A stretch of 64,000 bases of DNA from an uncultured delta proteobacterium (lineage in GTDB: Bacteria; Desulfobacterota; RBG-13-43-22): the NCBI GenBank assembly GCA_963802945.1, contig CAWDKY010000027.1, positions 64,001 to 128,000 of the forward strand. The letters run 5' to 3'. Below the pieces are notes generated by a model that ran no database searches, was not told where the DNA came from, and saw nothing but the letters and a program-made list of their open reading frames with translations. Positions within the stretch are counted from its first letter, which is position 1. Every line of letters begins with the position of its first letter. The position numbers and the translations under genes were made by a program. Positions 1 through 7,894 of this stretch are shown here, in pieces.

Positions 1-276
1 CTCTTATGAATCCATTTCACCACCGTCCACCGGGTCAACCCGAACAGTTCGGCAACAGCCGTGGATTTCCACCCGGCCAAGAGCAGAAGATAACCGGCGA
101 TCCGCATGCCGATCCAAGCTCCCGGAATTTCATCGGCCATTCGTAACAAGGTCTCTCGCGTCATCTTTGGGTGATCGAGGCTTAGAGCTTTCATGGCTTT
201 CCTCCCAATGTGATTTTATTGGGAGTCATTATAGCATGGAATGCACATAATGTCTACTTATTTATGGCGTTAACTA
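1..276 (-). mobile_element. IS630-family insertion sequence, left end and 5' part of transposase orfA (cut by window edge)
   Basis: Reverse complement matches the element at 24959 onward; the TIR ends ...GGCGTTAACTA followed by TA (277-278). Confidence 0.93.
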
Positions 277-659
277 TAAGTAGAGAAAAACTTAAGGAAA
301 TCTCAAGAATTATCTTCTGGAATCTGAACTTTTTTGTTGTATATGGTTTTATCTATAAAATTATTCACTCATTAGGTTCTGATAAATTAACAGAAATTGT
401 TAAAAAAGTATGTAATGAAATTAATACTCCGGCGTCTTTCATAGTGAAACATGGTATTTTAATGTGGTACAATAAAAATTTACAACTTGATGAACTTTTA
501 GCAAAAATTGAGGAAAAAGACCTTTCTATGATAACAGAAAGAGTTATAAATCGTTTTGTTGTTAATCATTGTGTTTTACATCCAATTAATTATAAAGACC
601 GACAAAGAATTGAAAACAAATTAGGGATTCGTACAACAAAACTTTTAAATAGAAGTTAA
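277..659 (+). pseudogene. 3' remnant of an AT-rich gene interrupted by IS630 (possibly the C-terminus of a STAND-type NTPase protein)
   Basis: The ORF 210..659 starts inside the IS, so the genuine coding part begins at the TA target. The HSLGSDKL...NTPASF..KHGILMWY segment recalls C-termini of STAND/metallophosphoesterase proteins (from memory). Confidence 0.6.
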
Positions 660-754
660 TAAGTCAGAACAAAATTGGGGTCATTATTGAAAGCAGAATG
701 AAAAGAAAATAGACCCCCGGCCTAATTAAAAAAAATGATTGTTTAAGGAACCAT

Positions 755-2221
755 ATGACAAGCTCCCGTCCTCATATACTTCTCGTTTCGCCCAAGCACC
801 CTCCAGAAAATTTGATGTGGGATTGTGCATCTATTCGCAAATTTTATGGCGACTCCCAAGGTCGATCTATCAGTTCCCCTTGTTATCCTCTTGCTCTCCC
901 TCTTATTGCAGCATTAATCAAGAGGGCACAGCCAGATATATCTTTAGACGTAGTAGATGAAGACGTAACACCCATCCCACGAGAAAAGAAATGGGATTTA
1001 GTTTGTATTTCAACCAATACATTGCAGGTCAAGAGAGCTTTTGAGTTATGCAGAGACTTTTCCAACACTGCAAAGGTCATCCTTGGAGGTTCGCATTTTT
1101 CGTTATACACAAAAATCACACTTGCGGAAGCTCAAGGTTATGCTAACAGTGTTGTCTTTGGCAAGACAGACAACATGTGGACCGGGATTCTCGATGATTT
1201 TTTAAACGGCAAACTCCAAACCGCTTACATGTCAGACCCAAATGACGCAGACGATTTTCGTAACCATGTCATTCCCGCCTTCGAGTATTTGAAAATGGAT
1301 TCATACCTTCATCGATTAATCGAAACGAGCAGAGGGTGTATAAGACGGTGTGATTTTTGCTGTGTGTCTGATAAATTACGATTTAAACCAATTGGAAATG
1401 TCATTGAAGAGATCAAGATCCTAAGGAATATTGAGCGGCAACATAATCTCCAGTTTGCATCCATCTTTTTCGCAGATAACTTACTTAATCCCACGGGAAT
1501 ACACTCTGAAAGATCAAGCCAATTGATGGAAGCCCTCATTAAGTATAAAGAGAGCCACTATTTAGGAGACAATCTGAAGTGGAGTGGCCAGGCTGACTTC
1601 TTGATTAAGGACGATGAACCTCTGATACGTCTTATGAGTAAAGCAGGAGCCCGCAGGTTGCTTATAGGCTTTGAGTCTTTTCATAATCATTTCGATAAAG
1701 GGTTGGGCCTAACTAATCCTCGTGAGCGTAAGCGTTTTTTTGCAGAGCTTATAGCAATGCTTCGTAAGCATGGAATAGAAGTAATAGCATCCTTTATTAT
1801 AGGCCATGACAACGACCCTGAAACAGTGTTTATCGAATTAAGTGAATTCATAGAAGACACTAACCTAACTTCAGTTCAAGTATTAGTATTGACGCCGTTT
1901 CCTGGAACAAAAGTCTTCAACGAGCTTTATTCGCAGGGTAGACTAATCTCTTCTGACAATGGTCACATCGATTGGACCAAATTTAATTCACTCACCTTTG
2001 TTTTCAAAACCAAAAAACTAGAAGCGAAATACAGTGAATACATAAAATTTTTGAGGAAAATTTACAACTATGAAAGAATTCTGAAGAGAGTGGATGCTAA
2101 GATGAACGAGTTTCCACTTCACGTTCGCGATGAAGTCAAGAAAAATGATTTGCTTTTTGGAAAACACTGCTCGCAGATTGCAATGACTATCGGAGGGGAA
2201 CAATATGTCGATGATTTTTGA
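755..2221 (+). CDS. B12-binding domain radical SAM protein
   Basis: N-terminal cobalamin-binding fold (PLALPLIAAL, VILGGSH), SRGCIRRCDFC CxxxCxxC motif, FFADN, IGFES, LTPFPGT. Confidence 0.9.
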   Translation: MTSSRPHILLVSPKHPPENLMWDCASIRKFYGDSQGRSISSPCYPLALPLIAALIKRAQPDISLDVVDEDVTPIPREKKWDLVCISTNTLQVKRAFELCRDFSNTAKVILGGSHFSLYTKITLAEAQGYANSVVFGKTDNMWTGILDDFLNGKLQTAYMSDPNDADDFRNHVIPAFEYLKMDSYLHRLIETSRGCIRRCDFCCVSDKLRFKPIGNVIEEIKILRNIERQHNLQFASIFFADNLLNPTGIHSERSSQLMEALIKYKESHYLGDNLKWSGQADFLIKDDEPLIRLMSKAGARRLLIGFESFHNHFDKGLGLTNPRERKRFFAELIAMLRKHGIEVIASFIIGHDNDPETVFIELSEFIEDTNLTSVQVLVLTPFPGTKVFNELYSQGRLISSDNGHIDWTKFNSLTFVFKTKKLEAKYSEYIKFLRKIYNYERILKRVDAKMNEFPLHVRDEVKKNDLLFGKHCSQIAMTIGGEQYVDDF

Positions 2222-3680
2222 CCCAAAAAAAATAGATAAAACCCAATTTAATTTATCCGTTAACATCATCAGAGATCATGAAAGTTCTCATCATGTTTGT
2301 TTTAACAAACTCTTCCCTGCCTGCCGGTACAAAAAAGACCAATTACAGGATTATAAGAGATTTCACGTGAGAGTCTACATACCGAAGAAAGCCCTCATGA
2401 ATATAAAAAAAGAAATCGAACGTGCGATAATAATGGTAAATGGCCTCGATGAAACCAAATATTTCACACTGTACGACCAACTTGGTCTCAAGTTGGCAGA
2501 ACATGGCATTGCCTCTGTTCTGATTCCTCTACCTGGCCACCTGAATAGGCATGCAGAATACCGAAATAAGGTCCCCGTATACGAAAAAAGACCAACAGCA
2601 GATTTGTTAGCGAACCCAGCAATTACAAGGCGTTTTTATTTCCAATTCATGGAAGAGTTGGATATTCTCTTAGATCACCTTACAGGGCAAGACTGTTGTG
2701 AAAGAAATGACAATTGTTTTTTCTTTAGAAGCCTTTTTGGTCCAGAAACGCGGGTTTCTATTTTGGGATACTCCATTGGCGCTTTGGCCGCTTTGGCCCA
2801 CTTCATCAAAAGAAAGGACAAATATAATTCATGCTTTGCACTAAACGGTGGCATCCAGATTAGCGATTTACGTTTCCCAGATAAATTCATAGAAAAAAGC
2901 GTATGGAAGGAGTTTACTCTCAAGCTGACAAGCTTTTGGGCGACACAGCACAAACCAACAGATTCACCAGATGAGATCATCGATGATACCCTTTTCTCTC
3001 AATTCTTTCTTGGATCTTATACGGGTCCCCTTAAGGAAATTCTTAAAGCATTATCACGTCGGATCTTGTTCGTTTTTGGAGGGAGCGACCAACTCATCCC
3101 TTTTCAGAGTCTGCAGAAGATTGAACCGGAGGAGCATGGTTTATCTATTTTAAAAATACCAGGCCTAGGCCACTTCCTCCCAAAGGAAAGAGAATGGAGT
3201 AATTGGATTGATACTCTTGTCAACCTAATTGCGAATTTTGAAGAAAATGCTGCCCATGAAATCCTTGGGTTTAAGGAACTCATCGAGACTCTTATAAAGT
3301 TGGATAGGAAACACGAATTTATTTCCAGGAACCCCGAATTTCCTTTCAATGGTGTTTTCTTTGGAACAAATATGGCCCTTGAAAAAATAGAGGACGCCAA
3401 TGTTTACCGCCTAGTACAAAAGCTGATTCAGTGTTCATCTGCATATATTTCTTCCGAGGACCTGTATTCTGAACTCAGCAGAGAAAAATCTAAGTACCTT
3501 CTCGGAAACTTGCTTGTCGAGAGCGGACATGTTCGGGAGGATCATGTTGCGGAATGCCTATTAGTCCAATCTAAATCGGGAACGGCGCTCGGTGAATTAC
3601 TTGTTTCTAAGAAGTATCTAGACGACGGAAGGCTAAACAAAGCTTTGCGGAAACAGGAGGCCTTCTACAAAGAGGGATGA
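2205..3680 (+). CDS. Alpha/beta hydrolase with C-terminal MshEN-like domain
   Basis: GYSIG nucleophile elbow, GGSDQ (Asp) and GLGH (His); tandem 24-aa LGxLLV..G..Q motifs at aa 432-484; overlaps the radical SAM gene end by 17 nt. Confidence 0.8.
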   Translation: MSMIFDPKKIDKTQFNLSVNIIRDHESSHHVCFNKLFPACRYKKDQLQDYKRFHVRVYIPKKALMNIKKEIERAIIMVNGLDETKYFTLYDQLGLKLAEHGIASVLIPLPGHLNRHAEYRNKVPVYEKRPTADLLANPAITRRFYFQFMEELDILLDHLTGQDCCERNDNCFFFRSLFGPETRVSILGYSIGALAALAHFIKRKDKYNSCFALNGGIQISDLRFPDKFIEKSVWKEFTLKLTSFWATQHKPTDSPDEIIDDTLFSQFFLGSYTGPLKEILKALSRRILFVFGGSDQLIPFQSLQKIEPEEHGLSILKIPGLGHFLPKEREWSNWIDTLVNLIANFEENAAHEILGFKELIETLIKLDRKHEFISRNPEFPFNGVFFGTNMALEKIEDANVYRLVQKLIQCSSAYISSEDLYSELSREKSKYLLGNLLVESGHVREDHVAECLLVQSKSGTALGELLVSKKYLDDGRLNKALRKQEAFYKEG

Positions 3681-3760
3681 ACTGGTCAGCTTTTCGAAGA
3701 GGGAAATAGTGAAGAAATGGGGGACGACCTTAAATAATTGATTCCTGAGAAATAAGTCCC

Positions 3761-3841
3761 GGGGTCGAGGGTCAGGTCTTTTATTTTGGCATAATGAATT
3801 AAAGCAGAACACCGGTAATGGATAGGGATTGGGGGCTTACC
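3761..3841 (+). repeat. GGGGTC-type dispersed repeat, copy 1 (modules A-B)
   Basis: Near-identical to 7726-7801 (GGGTCGAGGGTCAGGTCTTTTATTTTGG...AAAGCAGAAC..CGGTAATGGATAGGGATTGGGG.CTTACC). Confidence 0.9.
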
Positions 3842-4169
3842 TGATTTTAGGGTCAGGTCTTTTATCTTGGTGTTATTGTCAAAGGAGTCATGTCTACGTT
3901 TGACTTTTGAAACTATTTTAGATTAATTATTGATACTTCTCTTTTTCACATCAAGGATTGCGGGTTAAGATTAAAGAAATCTATAAGGGGCAAACCTTGC
4001 GCCCCGATTTACCACTTGATAAGCATTACAAATTACTCAATACGATGAGCAAATTTACTCAAAAACGACAGCAAACCTTAAGCCTTATTTTCGCCCTCCA
4101 GCTTCTATGGATTTGTAGTCAAATCTTGATCCTTGGAGGTATGGGGCTGGCCGACGTCGGTGATTCTGG

Positions 4170-4203
4170 TTGACAAAATTATAATGGTCAGTATAATGAC
4201 TAT
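4170..4203 (+). promoter_or_regulatory. Sigma70 promoter with overlapping palindromic operator of the TA operon
   Basis: TTGACA-N16-TATAAT; inverted repeat ATGGTCA-N6-TGACTAT spans the -10 box. Confidence 0.7.
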
Positions 4204-4500
4204 ATGGTAAAAAATAATGGGGGGTTAGATATGGAGATCATTCGGGAGTATATCCCAGTCACCAAGGCCAAAAGCGATCTGCTGAATTTGATTCGAAAGC
4301 TCGAAAATAGCGAAGATGCCGTTGCCATTACGAAAAACGGAACTCCAGAGGCCGTTCTGATCAGCATGAGAAAATTTAAAGGACTCCTGGAGACCATTGA
4401 TATCCTTTCCGATGAGCAGGCCATGAAAAGCATTAGAAAATCCATCCGGGAGGCCAATCGAGGAAAATGGGTTGAGTTCGATAAGGTTTTCGGGCCATGA
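4204..4500 (+). CDS. Phd/YefM family antitoxin (start possibly 4231)
   Basis: IPVTKAKSDLLNLIR...VAITKNGTPEAVLIS...LLETIDIL is the typical Phd pattern; ATGA overlap with the toxin. Confidence 0.92.
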   Translation: MVKNNGGLDMEIIREYIPVTKAKSDLLNLIRKLENSEDAVAITKNGTPEAVLISMRKFKGLLETIDILSDEQAMKSIRKSIREANRGKWVEFDKVFGP

Positions 4501-4787
4501 AGGAATATCATGTTCGTTTCACTCCTGAAGCAGTTCAATGTATCTCCCGGCTGCATCCCGATCACAAGAAGATCATACGAGACGCCTTAGACCAACTGCG
4601 TCGTGAACCCTTTACCGGTGATGACTTGCAGGAGGAACTCGCCGAATTCAAATCCTTTAAGCCCAGGAGATTTCGGATCATCTATACCATTGACCAAAAC
4701 AAACGGCTTATCCAAGTCTATTATGTCGGCCTTCGTAAGGACGTTTATGACCAATTCCGGCTTCTGCTGGACAAACTAAAATCATAG
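4497..4787 (+). CDS. RelE/ParE family toxin
   Basis: 96 aa; Y.V.FTPEA, EPFTG..L, RFRIIYTID, VGLRKDVY. Confidence 0.92.
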   Translation: MKEYHVRFTPEAVQCISRLHPDHKKIIRDALDQLRREPFTGDDLQEELAEFKSFKPRRFRIIYTIDQNKRLIQVYYVGLRKDVYDQFRLLLDKLKS

Positions 4788-4865
4788 CCGCACCTTATTT
4801 CAGAAAAAGGGAACTTTCCCGGATTAAAATAAAAAGTCTTGAATTGGGGTCGGACCGGACGAAGA

Positions 4866-4943
4866 GATTGGAGTCTTACCAGACGAAGAAACTGGATTCA
4901 TAGGGAATTGTATGAAAAACTGGGGTAAAAAAGGTCTTAAACC
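4866..4943 (+). repeat. Dispersed repeat, copy 2 (modules B-C)
   Basis: GATTGGAGTCTTACCAGACGAAGAAACTGGATTCATAGG... matches 7787-7864. Confidence 0.85.
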
Positions 4944-5055
4944 GACCTTCTTACCCCCCAAAATAAAGCTTTTGATGCCTGTATTTCCTGAGTTTATTCT
5001 GGCTTTATTTTCCGGGGCTGAACACAAGTCCGGAGAAACCGAGCCGGAAATCGGT

Positions 5056-7518
5056 TCAATGTTCGAGAGGACGGCTGCCCTGTTCATGATCCATAATGAT
5101 ATCCTTAGCCCGCAATTCGGCTATTTCCTTTGCGTCTAATCCCAACAGTTCTCCTAAGACATAGTCATTATGCTCTCCAAGGCGCGGAGCGCACACCGCC
5201 GGTATTTCCAGACCGTCAATTCTGAACGGAGGGCCGGGGAGTTCAAGTTTCCCTATTTCAGGATGGCGGATGGTCACAAAGGCTTTTCGTTTCCTAAGAT
5301 GACGATCGGCATACATATCTTCACCATCCCTGGAAGGTGCTGCGGCCAGACCCGCCTGGCAGAATTCATTGACCATCCAATCCCGATCCCGCTGACTTAT
5401 CCAATGGCCGATGATTTCATCCAATTCCTGCTCGTGTTTTTTTCGGGAACTCATATCTGCAAAACGCAAATCTTTCGACATCTCCGGTCGGCCGATTAAT
5501 TTAGCCAGAACGGCGAATTCTTCGTCGGAGTGTATCTCCAAGGCCAGCCAGCGATCCACCCCCCAGCATCGGTAGACGTTGTGCGGTGCGAAAAAAGGAT
5601 GAGCGTTCCCGATTCGTTCCGGTATTTTTCCCGTCATTTGAAAGGCCAACAGAAATTCACCGATCAGCGAAGTGACGGCCTCGCATTGGGAGATATCGAT
5701 GAATTGTCCCTGGCCGGTCTTCCGTCGATGATGGAGAGCGATGACGGCGCTGTAGGCGGCGACCATGCTGTTCATGATATCCGCATCGGCCGAGCCATGG
5801 GTGGGATGATCATCCGGATAACCCGAGACATAAGTAAGCCCGCCAATCGATTGATGGGTTGTGGCAAATCCGAGATAATCGCTTTCAGGACCGCCTAATC
5901 CCCGGCTGGAAAGGGCCACACAGATGATATCCGGCCGTGATTTTTTTAAATCTTCGTATCCCAGACCTAATTTAGCCATGACGCCCGGACGCATGTTATC
6001 CACGATCACATCGCTGATCAAGGCCAATCTTTTGGCCAGGGCCATCCCTTCCGGCTGGCCGAGGTCGAGGGTGAGACTTTTTTTATTTTGATTGATGGTA
6101 TTATAGGCCAGGCCCTGGTTGGGCGGAAGAAGGACGGGATTTGGTTCGGGTAGGGGCCAGATTACGCCCCGCCGCGTCATATCCGATCGCCGGTGACCTT
6201 CGATCTTGATGACCTCGGCCCCAAGCTGGCCGAGAAGCATGCAGGCGTAAGGTCCGGCATAGACCCAGTTAAAATCTAAAACTCGAATCCCTTCCAGCGG
6301 AAGCTTGTCAGGGCCATCCTGGCGGATAGATTCGGGAGAGGACTTAGGACCTTTGCTCGCCTTGGCTAATGCCTTGAGAATCTCATCATTATGCTGACCC
6401 AGCAAAGGGGCGGGTCGGCTGATTTCCGGCTTTATGGAGGTCATTTTGTAGGGCCAGCCAGGATATTGCAATCGGCCAGCGATCGGATGATCCACGGGCA
6501 CAAAATAGTTTCTGGCCGCGTACTGCCGATTTTCCATCACATCTTTGGCCGTATTGACCGGTCCGTTGGGAATGCCCACTTCATCGAACATTCGACCTAA
6601 TTCATCTTTCTTATACTGCCTCATCCAGGCTTCCATTTGAGGAACGATATCCATCATATGAAAACGGCGGTAAACACGATTGTCCCACTCGTCTCCGGCG
6701 ATCCAGTCGGGTTTTCCGGCCAGTTCCCTGAAGGCCCTGAAATGATGGTCGTCGGCAGGGGCGAAAATGATATAGCCGTCGCTGGTCTGCATTCTGCCGC
6801 TGGCCGGCGGCCGGTCCGGCACGCGGGACCAGGTCGTCCTATTGTAACGATTGCCCGTTATGTTTGGAGCAACCGTAGTCATGACCACTTCCTGAAGGGA
6901 GATGTCTACGAGTTTGCCTCCGCCGGTCTTCAATCGGTTCGAAACCACGGCCAGCGTAGCCAGCGCGGCGGCGATGGCCCCGTAATAAGCGACCTGAAAT
7001 CCCCCCAGCTTGACCGGTGGACGGTCAATGTTAGGGGAACGGGTCGGCAATAGATTGCCCAATCCGCCGGCGTGGATAAGGGTTAATTCGTCTCCTTTGA
7101 CCTTAGCCCGCGGGCCTGTACGTCCATAGGGGGTTATTACGGTATAAACCAGTTCCGGGTTTAATTGGTGAATGGTTTCCCAGCCCAGTCCAAAACTCTC
7201 CAGAACGGCAGGGGTATGGTTATCAATCAAAACATCGGCCCAGAGAATAAGCTTCTTGAAGGTCTCAAGGCCCTGGGGAGAGTTCAAGGAGAGTGTAATG
7301 CCCCGCTTGTTGGTATTATTGTACAAGTACAATCCGCTGCATTCCTGATGAGATCCGCTGGTCGGAAAAGGTCCGAAGGAGCGGGCCGGATCACCTTCTG
7401 TGGTTTCAATCTTGACCACATCGGCACCCATATCCGCCATAAGCTTTCCACAGTATGGTCCGGAGACCATGGAGGCAAATTCAATAATCTTGATGTCGTT
7501 CAGCACTTTTTCAGGCAT
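5056..7518 (-). CDS. Double-domain CaiB/BaiF (family III) CoA-transferase
   Basis: Two tandem repeats of GPY(C/A)...GA(D/E)V(V/I)KIE, N.NK.(G/S)(I/L)TL and AP.LG(Q/E)HND. Confidence 0.95.
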   Translation of the reverse strand: MPEKVLNDIKIIEFASMVSGPYCGKLMADMGADVVKIETTEGDPARSFGPFPTSGSHQECSGLYLYNNTNKRGITLSLNSPQGLETFKKLILWADVLIDNHTPAVLESFGLGWETIHQLNPELVYTVITPYGRTGPRAKVKGDELTLIHAGGLGNLLPTRSPNIDRPPVKLGGFQVAYYGAIAAALATLAVVSNRLKTGGGKLVDISLQEVVMTTVAPNITGNRYNRTTWSRVPDRPPASGRMQTSDGYIIFAPADDHHFRAFRELAGKPDWIAGDEWDNRVYRRFHMMDIVPQMEAWMRQYKKDELGRMFDEVGIPNGPVNTAKDVMENRQYAARNYFVPVDHPIAGRLQYPGWPYKMTSIKPEISRPAPLLGQHNDEILKALAKASKGPKSSPESIRQDGPDKLPLEGIRVLDFNWVYAGPYACMLLGQLGAEVIKIEGHRRSDMTRRGVIWPLPEPNPVLLPPNQGLAYNTINQNKKSLTLDLGQPEGMALAKRLALISDVIVDNMRPGVMAKLGLGYEDLKKSRPDIICVALSSRGLGGPESDYLGFATTHQSIGGLTYVSGYPDDHPTHGSADADIMNSMVAAYSAVIALHHRRKTGQGQFIDISQCEAVTSLIGEFLLAFQMTGKIPERIGNAHPFFAPHNVYRCWGVDRWLALEIHSDEEFAVLAKLIGRPEMSKDLRFADMSSRKKHEQELDEIIGHWISQRDRDWMVNEFCQAGLAAAPSRDGEDMYADRHLRKRKAFVTIRHPEIGKLELPGPPFRIDGLEIPAVCAPRLGEHNDYVLGELLGLDAKEIAELRAKDIIMDHEQGSRPLEH

Positions 7519-7725
7519 AGTTTTCCGTTCCTGTTTCGAATGAATTGCAAGCAGATCTCTTATCCGGAATAAGCTCTCTGGAAGGTAATCATCCCAAGGC
7601 TATTGGTTTGATAAAGCCGCTTTTTCGTGGGAAGAATATAAAATAAAGTCAAGAGAGGATCAAGGGGAAAAATTGAAGGGAAAACCAGGTGACCAAGGGG
7701 ATGGTAGGATTAAGATTGGGGTCGT

Positions 7726-7864
7726 GGGTCGAGGGTCAGGTCTTTTATTTTGGTATAATTAAAGCAGAACATCGGTAATGGATAGGGATTGGGGTCTTAC
7801 CAGACGAAAAAACTGGATTCATAGGAAATGGTTTGATAAATGCAGGGCAAAAATGGGCTTAAAC
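7726..7864 (+). repeat. Dispersed repeat, copy 3 (intact A-B-C)
   Basis: Contains both the 3761-3841 and the 4866-4943 sequences contiguously. Confidence 0.88.
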
Positions 7865-7894
7865 TTATTAACTTATTGGCCTGAAGACGGCCTG

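Follow-up and report, generated by a model that had tools for sequence, protein, structure and literature searches.

The MshEN domain counts among the highest-affinity receptors of cyclic dimeric guanosine monophosphate (c-di-GMP) and, in the portions of the literature accessible to us, its characterised outputs are pilus or secretion ATPases and the NfrB glycosyltransferase, with the original MshEN paper reporting fusions to ATPase, glycosyltransferase and other domains. In NfrB of Escherichia coli, c-di-GMP allosterically activates the glycosyltransferase via a C-terminal MshEN domain (PMC10118264, in its accessible part). A second group of relevant systems involves alpha/beta-hydrolases: their pairing with caspases is known from conflict systems (Kaur et al. 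2020, PMC7159879), and one caspase-associated member, LcHydrolase, is a death effector that a protease activates and whose substrate is unknown, a type which carries two conserved Arg-Gly cleavage sites (bioRxiv 10.1101/2025.11.14.688446; both sources as accessible in part). Here we analyse a two-gene cassette in a stretch of 64,000 nucleotides from an uncultured delta proteobacterium (GenBank assembly GCA_963802945.1, contig CAWDKY010000027.1, positions 64,001 to 128,000 of the forward strand), the whole of which is referred to as the window. The cassette encodes a radical S-adenosylmethionine (SAM) enzyme of the B12-binding type followed by a serine alpha/beta-hydrolase ending in an MshEN-type module, and we lean, with moderate confidence, towards reading it as a c-di-GMP-gated effector hydrolase accompanied by a clade-specific radical SAM helper on a mobile two-gene cassette. 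The genes and their key sites are:

755..2221, + strand: radical SAM enzyme of B12-binding (class B) type by Pfam, 488 residues, of a small subfamily seen only 5' of hydrolases from this clade
1337..1360, + strand: CxxxCxxC radical SAM cluster motif (Cys195, Cys199, Cys202), invariant in the nine-sequence subfamily alignment
2205..3680, + strand: alpha/beta serine hydrolase with C-terminal MshEN-type module, 491 residues, from the open reading frame (ORF) and an AF2 model
2526..2549, + strand: family signature PLPGHLNR (residues 108-115), with Pro108, Pro110, His112 and Arg115 in at least 90% of 91 relatives
2772..2774, 3087..3089 and 3171..3173, + strand: conserved triad of the nucleophile Ser190 (in GYSIG), Asp295 and His323
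3498..3656, + strand: 24-5-24 module of MshEN type (residues 432-484), a putative c-di-GMP binding site, from NF053729, PDB matches and a predicted model

The window hydrolase resembles NfrB in being an enzyme with a C-terminal MshEN-type module. Its output, however, is a soluble serine alpha/beta-hydrolase and not a membrane glycosyltransferase, the window has no NfrA or DgcJ partners, and neither motif keeps the leading Arg. With MshE of Vibrio cholerae and PilF of Thermus thermophilus it shares two 24-residue motifs and a five-residue spacer, the 53-residue modules being 35-38% identical, and like the GSPII-B domain of PilF it lacks Arg at position 1 (PMC11731258, accessible in part). In those proteins the domains are N-terminal, have an extra C-terminal subdomain (about 145 residues for the full domain) and regulate pilus ATPases, whereas in the window the 53-residue module stands alone at the C-terminus of a hydrolase. 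The family to which the window hydrolase belongs includes caspase-, TIR- and TIR-caspase-hydrolase fusions, a kind of pairing also seen in the caspase-associated effectors outlined in PMC7159879. LcHydrolase, compared here by its partly accessible description and not by sequence, is likewise an alpha/beta hydrolase with lipase/esterase-like fold matches and unknown substrate; unlike its setting, no protease occurs among the window neighbours, the 491-residue translation contains no Arg-Gly dipeptide, and regulation in the window would be by ligand and not by cleavage. A fusion of MshEN to a serine hydrolase was not found in the literature searched, as judged by titles and the beginnings of abstracts, and the supplementary tables of the original MshEN paper might list one. 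As an MshEN-regulated enzyme the system would offer an output domain new to this mode of control, together with an orphan radical SAM enzyme as its partner, MshEN regulation itself being already known.

The evidence for the tail comes from sequence profiles and from its predicted fold. The tandem consists of residues 432-455, the spacer and residues 461-484, at exactly the nucleotides given by an initial annotation of the window, which had been made from the letters alone. The NCBIfam model NF053729 ('c-di-GMP_motif, MshE-related') matches residues 433-484 with 40.0 bits (curated cutoff 38; E 2.4e-10), which at the level of sequence places the tandem beyond chance, and the same motif reaches 43.4 bits in a six-frame search of the genome. 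Also, the tail aligns to the C-terminal positions 652-710 of the 723 of the NfrB model (E 2e-4), the last 73 residues alone match PilF and MshE chains in the PDB (E 5e-6 to 7e-4), and a 15-sequence family profile retrieves PilF (6.4e-10), PilB (5.5e-4) and MshE (5.4e-3) from the same database. The predicted model of residues 395-491, with a predicted local distance difference test score (pLDDT) of 89.2, contains the four-helix fold of the 53-residue module, and its top matches in two independent searches are c-di-GMP-bound MshE and PilF GSPII-B: the root-mean-square deviation (rmsd) is 0.8-0.9 Å over 54 columns (0.8 Å for MshE, 5htl), and VIA gives Z scores of 10.2 and 9.8 for these two against at most 5.9 for unrelated folds, the best match (Z 10.2) having an rmsd of 1.5 over 58 residues. 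The MshEN fold proposed initially is thereby reproduced in the model, and sequence and predicted fold together support the assignment of the C-terminus as a real MshEN-type module.

A comparison of the individual motif positions qualifies the question of the ligand. Relative to the extended consensus of PMC11731258, motif I agrees at 10 of the 11 key positions and motif II at 8 of 11, with Leu2, Gly3, Val17, Leu21 and Gln24 in the former and Leu2, Gly3, Leu17, Leu21 and Gln24 in the latter; Gly10 is kept in motif I and is Lys in motif II. At position 1, Leu432 of motif I fits the extended consensus and Ala461 of motif II fits neither consensus. The initial annotation was right that the leading Arg is replaced in both repeats, but its suggestion that the ligand may therefore differ or binding be lost is weakened: according to the accessible part of PMC11731258 the leading Arg merely stacks on guanine, the consensus reads (R/K/L)LGxx, and PilF GSPII-B, with Lys and Leu at the leading positions, binds c-di-GMP with a dissociation constant of 6 nM (2 nM for the K167L variant). 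By analogy with these nanomolar affinities, the missing Arg would be weak evidence against c-di-GMP binding as far as Leu432 is concerned. The host genome encodes nine GGDEF genes and two other MshEN-motif proteins, all above cutoff, so c-di-GMP should be available to the protein. Among the hydrolases, NF053729 is matched by seven of eight at E <= 0.1, the eighth being a truncated sequence, and the window copy has the best score of the family. Strict regular expressions missed most degenerate copies and were replaced by profile alignment, with which the C-terminal module was aligned in 41 of 152 family representatives, many of them starting with Arg or Lys; motif II usually holds 8-11 of the 11 key positions, often with Arg or Lys first.

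The catalytic part of the hydrolase is well preserved. Ser190, Asp295 and His323 are invariant in the eight-sequence family alignment, and among 91 wider relatives Ser190 and Asp295 remain invariant with His323 present in at least 90%; since this Ser-Asp-His triad is conserved, the enzyme is to be regarded, on its sequence, as catalytically intact. The AF2 model of the whole protein has a pLDDT of 82.1 and a predicted template modelling score (pTM) of 0.75. Together with the catalytic set, the unusual N-terminal extension remarked upon initially is borne out: it comprises about 50 residues with two extra beta-strands in the model and is kept in close relatives, and in many distant homologs the match begins only at about profile position 51-58. 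Met1-Ser2 is invariant in relatives. As to the substrate, the Pfam alpha/beta-hydrolase matches are all under gathering scores, and Foldseek pairs the whole model with many alpha/beta hydrolases at probability 1.00 (e.g. esterase D, YjfP and monoglyceride lipase), all generic, with TM to target of at most 0.69 and 11-17% identity, so that no specific enzyme family can be named from it; Protein Atlas likewise returned generic or ABHD18-like hydrolase clusters only (0.91-0.92). Several basic residues are invariant, among them Lys35, Arg56, Arg115 and Arg120, and it is a speculation from sequence that these point to an anionic substrate.

An exhaustive profile search for the wider family yielded 1722 representatives at E <= 1e-3, 363 at <= 1e-10 and 135 at <= 1e-30. 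Among the 91 wider relatives a caspase domain is found in four, TIR in two and a Ser/Thr kinase in two, and the domain orders in 29 long members scanned singly are caspase-hydrolase, TIR-caspase-hydrolase, TIR-hydrolase and kinase-hydrolase. These fusions concern the same hydrolase domain: its E-values in the caspase, TIR and kinase fusions range from 2e-57 to 1e-32, the PLPxHxxR signature is common to them, and NGLxE, PLPxHxxR (with the key residues of PLPGHLNR), GxSxGG, GGxD and the catalytic His are present in most fused and stand-alone members printed. In P0242 and P0244 an N-terminal Ser/Thr kinase matching PADLOC PD-T4-6 (best E 2e-64) precedes it. Because the hydrolase domain is joined to caspase, TIR or Ser/Thr kinase domains in other members of the family, the window protein would be an effector rather than a housekeeping enzyme. 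One member, at L006 769-2178, is on its sequence probably a pseudoenzyme: Ala replaces the nucleophile Ser, neither the catalytic His nor the MshEN-like motifs are preserved, and its branch is a long one. Another homolog, at L011 8001-9484, is read in two overlapping ORFs, likely by a frameshift, with a phage-type integrase about 1.7 kb downstream. A GGDEF diguanylate cyclase is encoded at L005 4240-5544, 2.3 kb 5' of a stand-alone homolog, an arrangement not conserved in the related L004 and L007.

The upstream gene is assigned to its superfamily and not beyond. Pfam recognises Radical_SAM PF04055 (2e-10, 41.6 bits vs 29.5) and a DUF4070 tail (23.4 bits vs a cutoff of 22), and the N-terminal B12-binding domain PF02310 (1.3e-6) has 28.6 bits, under the gathering score of 32.1, such that cobalamin binding is a prediction only; precomputed Pfam lists the B12-binding domain for the same protein and its homologs. 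Only seven close homologs exist (E 5e-122 to 7e-88), after which identity drops to 33%. All 18 NCBIfam matches fall far under cutoffs, with no equivalog cutoff passed; the weak likenesses include BchE, HpnJ (56.9 bits vs 577.6), a ladderane-type lipid enzyme and the methyl-coenzyme M reductase glutamine methyltransferase family. The N-terminal B12-binding-like domain, the CxxxCxxC core and the DUF4070 tail recall HpnJ, BchE and the PhpK-type P-methyltransferases, but the window enzyme stays far under the cutoffs of the named families and its nearest relative outside the subfamily is 33% identical, for which reasons no function can be transferred. The methylation expected at first from class B membership consequently does not hold as an assignment, since the best named matches are below cutoff and include the non-methylases BchE and HpnJ; the chemistry is for the same reason unassignable. 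Two weak sequence matches in the PDB are uninformative, and PADLOC 2.0 gives a single weak match (PDC-M51A, 18.5 bits).

The association of the two genes was followed from both sides. A word-indexed protein search found seven close hydrolase relatives and one distant, and a locus survey with one genome per species gave ten hydrolase loci, of which two (L002 and L008) have a radical SAM homolog upstream and eight do not; the other hydrolase neighbourhoods have nothing in common. In the converse direction, a search with the radical SAM subfamily against metagenome contigs gave 51 loci with just one close relative, L013, and there the hydrolase lies immediately 3' of the radical SAM gene. The dedicated subfamily thus stands beside the hydrolase in all four loci with visible context, which belong to one clade: in a maximum-likelihood tree of 17 hydrolases the four linked ones fall inside a clade of seven with support 98/99. 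Three rows were excluded from the tree: P0004, whose motif strings equal those of L008 and which was treated as that protein, L010, which is cut by a contig end, and L011, whose ORF is split. Overlaps or short gaps between the genes (17 nt of overlap in the window and 14 nt in L013, a gap of 25 nt in L008), a radical SAM remnant in L002 and the clade support indicate that the operon coupling of the hydrolase with a dedicated radical SAM gene is real, as judged from gene order and sequence. The linkage anticipated initially therefore stands for one clade and fails for the family at large, the radical SAM gene being missing at eight of ten loci, and we read the hydrolase as the ancestral, self-sufficient unit and the radical SAM enzyme as a clade-specific, co-inherited accessory. 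About 870 nt (6909-7781), holding two small ORFs that have no Pfam matches, break the radical SAM gene of L002, the closest genomic relative; a C-terminal remnant of that gene abuts the start of the intact hydrolase. Chance adjacency of the genes was rejected on the four linked loci out of four and the clade structure. A system resembling those of ribosomally synthesised and post-translationally modified peptides was dropped too, no Pfam-recognisable ORF flanking the pair in L013 (an integrase fragment apart) or lying between the L002 genes.

The cassette lies in a region of distinct composition, whose further features are:

3..194, - strand: N-terminal part of the IS630-family transposase splitting the anti-phage gene (HTH_23 and HTH_29; NF033545 transpos_IS630 on the full ORFs, L012)
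210..659, + strand: C-terminal fragment of the TIR-STAND anti-phage gene split by the insertion sequence (IS), matching NF053861 DS8_antiphage positions 877-994 of 994 (E 1.7e-18) and PADLOC PDC-S60
3768..3870, + strand: two 22-nt direct repeats, 3768-3789 and 3849-3870, 81 nt apart
4204..4787, + strand: Phd/YefM antitoxin (4204-4500) and ParE toxin (4497-4787) pair, by Pfam

The two ORFs, 755-2221 and 2205-3680, are visibly poorer in guanine plus cytosine (GC 0.36-0.43 across 750-4250) than the metabolic genes from about 5000 onward (0.50-0.56), and on one side they adjoin the IS630-split TIR-STAND gene and on the other the Phd/ParE pair. The initial description of an overlapping, AT-rich pair between an IS-disrupted gene and a toxin-antitoxin pair is accurate in these respects. 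The ORF at 210-659 represents the last 149 codons of the TIR-STAND gene, the N-terminal rest (TIR and STAND NTPase) being just upstream of the window. The whole gene (window 1-659 plus upstream sequence, L012 8973-12659) is cut near profile position 875 by the transposase, which reads in two frames, and because both halves remain open the insertion seems to be recent. Further upstream are an AAA_14/DUF4143 ATPase, which is PADLOC candidate PDC-S01, and an ORF6N protein, PDC-S05. Taking the split TIR-STAND gene, the PDC-S01 and PDC-S05 neighbours and the Phd/ParE pair together, the setting is a mobile island rich in defence genes. The GC content differs between the TIR-STAND gene (about 0.29), the cassette (about 0.40) and the IS (about 0.52), and for this reason separate arrivals are suggested.

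Acquisition from outside, as supposed in the initial annotation, also fits the distribution: the hydrolase was found in none of 40 relatives at E <= 1e-10, a sample of 400 genomes from the phylum gave no match to its family profile at E <= 1e-30, and with the low GC this makes the region look horizontally acquired. A same-genus genome has two flanking gene segments with 93-94% nucleotide identity, and its 34-kb contig has no counterpart of the cassette. Among sequencing runs, three DNA runs from a single study are listed as sharing a small portion of words with the cassette, and no RNA run is listed for it. Downstream of the hydrolase each 22-nt repeat sits at a terminator-like hairpin, the one at 3839-3858 overlapping the second repeat, and the zone 3768-3870 is likely the end of the cassette transcript. 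The Phd/ParE pair has a promoter-like site at 4170-4197 that matches 12 of 12 sigma-70 consensus positions. Beyond it comes a coenzyme A (CoA)-transferase gene of host-like GC, at 5056-7518 on the - strand, whose 820-residue product consists of two family III CoA-transferase halves; several same-genus paralogs show one in-frame TAA, perhaps between the halves, which may be two adjacent genes in those genomes and fused in the window. Stretches of 60-130 nt flanking this gene (4843-4974 and 7788-7865) match several places in the same-genus contig at 80-91% identity and look like a dispersed intergenic repeat.

Combining these observations, the proposed mechanism would centre on a serine alpha/beta-hydrolase of the cytoplasm under the control of a nucleotide messenger: c-di-GMP would bind the tail and switch the hydrolase allosterically, by analogy with NfrB, and the hydrolase would act not in housekeeping but as an output or effector, with an ester, a lipid or a peptide as its substrate. 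The radical SAM enzyme may make or tailor the substrate or modify the hydrolase itself, and the most likely role would be in conflict or cell fate, as an effector coupled to the level of c-di-GMP. Several points weigh against this mechanism. The NF053729 score exceeds its cutoff by just 2 bits, and only 9 of the 91 wider relatives match that model at E <= 0.01. Motif I carries His (position 11) and Val (position 17), motif II has Ala461 at position 1, Lys470 for Gly at 10 and Tyr471 at 11, and the spacer of 6-11 residues in close relatives differs from the five of the window. The hydrolase ends seven residues past motif II and lacks the C-terminal GSPII subdomain that MshE and PilF possess, and the predicted fold of the tail may lean on solved MshEN structures seen by the predictor. 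Nothing points to what the radical SAM enzyme does, and to our knowledge c-di-GMP is not established as a defence signal. Finally, the hydrolase has no PADLOC 2.0 match at E <= 0.1, the PADLOC matches of 91 family members stem from the fused caspase and kinase domains with no hydrolase-component model among the families listed, and clear defence neighbours are limited to the window and L009 among the 12 loci examined. With respect to the defence module suggested initially, the neighbours are indeed of that kind, but neither protein of the pair adds to it beyond the one weak match of the radical SAM enzyme. A sharper version of the mechanism, which we consider improbable, is a messenger-gated death or defence effector in which a toxic hydrolase of the caspase/TIR-associated family would be licensed at its MshEN tail by c-di-GMP or a related cyclic dinucleotide, and not by proteolysis, with the private B12 radical SAM enzyme supplying or priming its target.

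Other explanations share part of this evidence. The tail could sense an infection-specific cyclic nucleotide and not housekeeping c-di-GMP, unleashing a toxic hydrolase as an anti-phage or abortive-infection effector. A comparable case is the activation of the patatin lipase CapV by cyclic GMP-AMP (cGAMP) in cyclic-oligonucleotide-based anti-phage signalling systems (CBASS). The low-GC island beside PDC-S01, PDC-S05, the TIR-STAND gene and a toxin-antitoxin pair would suit such an effector, as would the sporadic distribution of the hydrolase, the fusions to caspase, TIR and PD-T4-6-like kinase domains and the conflict role of caspase-associated alpha/beta-hydrolases (PMC7159879; bioRxiv 10.1101/2025.11.14.688446, in their accessible parts). 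Yet no cyclase or other signal generator occurs within about 6 kb, where the neighbours are all otherwise accounted for, the hydrolase finds no PADLOC match, most other loci have housekeeping neighbours, and 29 pattern matches in viral contigs include none that encodes a hydrolase relative. The replacement of both motif-leading Arg residues, which could speak for a different nucleotide, is compatible with c-di-GMP binding on the partly accessible data of PMC11731258. We regard this explanation as unlikely.

A somewhat more doubtful explanation takes the tail as a degenerate MshEN relic that binds nothing, a helical dimerisation or docking element, and the pair as an unregulated lipid or small-molecule tailoring module. 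The deviations at motif positions 1, 10 and 11, a score barely over cutoff, the degenerate motif I and variable spacer of close relatives and the weak resemblance of the radical SAM enzyme to the lipid and cofactor enzymes HpnJ, BchE and the ladderane-type lipid enzyme are all in line with it. In motif II, however, Gly3 and mostly Gln24 are kept even in very divergent family members, which suggests selection on a ligand site; moreover it is the window copy that scores best in the family, and no further biosynthetic genes are conserved beside the pair. We consider it highly improbable that the hydrolase is matured or licensed by its radical SAM partner through a post-translational methylation or crosslink. 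In favour are the restriction of the subfamily to a single hydrolase clade, beside whose genes it always stands (four of four loci), the overlapping reading frames, which suggest 1:1 co-production, and the existence of B12 radical SAM enzymes with protein substrates, such as the weakly matching methyl-coenzyme M reductase glutamine methyltransferase family. On the other side, most hydrolases of the family work without the enzyme, the hydrolase of L002 is intact beside an interrupted radical SAM gene, and no clade-specific target residue was identified.

Under the c-di-GMP-gated reading, a serine-hydrolase output would, if true, constitute a new kind of c-di-GMP-controlled chemistry. If the window hydrolase and the caspase-associated hydrolases share one family, a ligand-gated version could help to find the target of the latter, and since the radical SAM subfamily is an orphan enzyme strictly co-inherited with a defined partner, the search for its substrate is narrowed. 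The reading as a death or defence effector, if true, would tie second-messenger signalling of the biofilm type directly to conflict systems.

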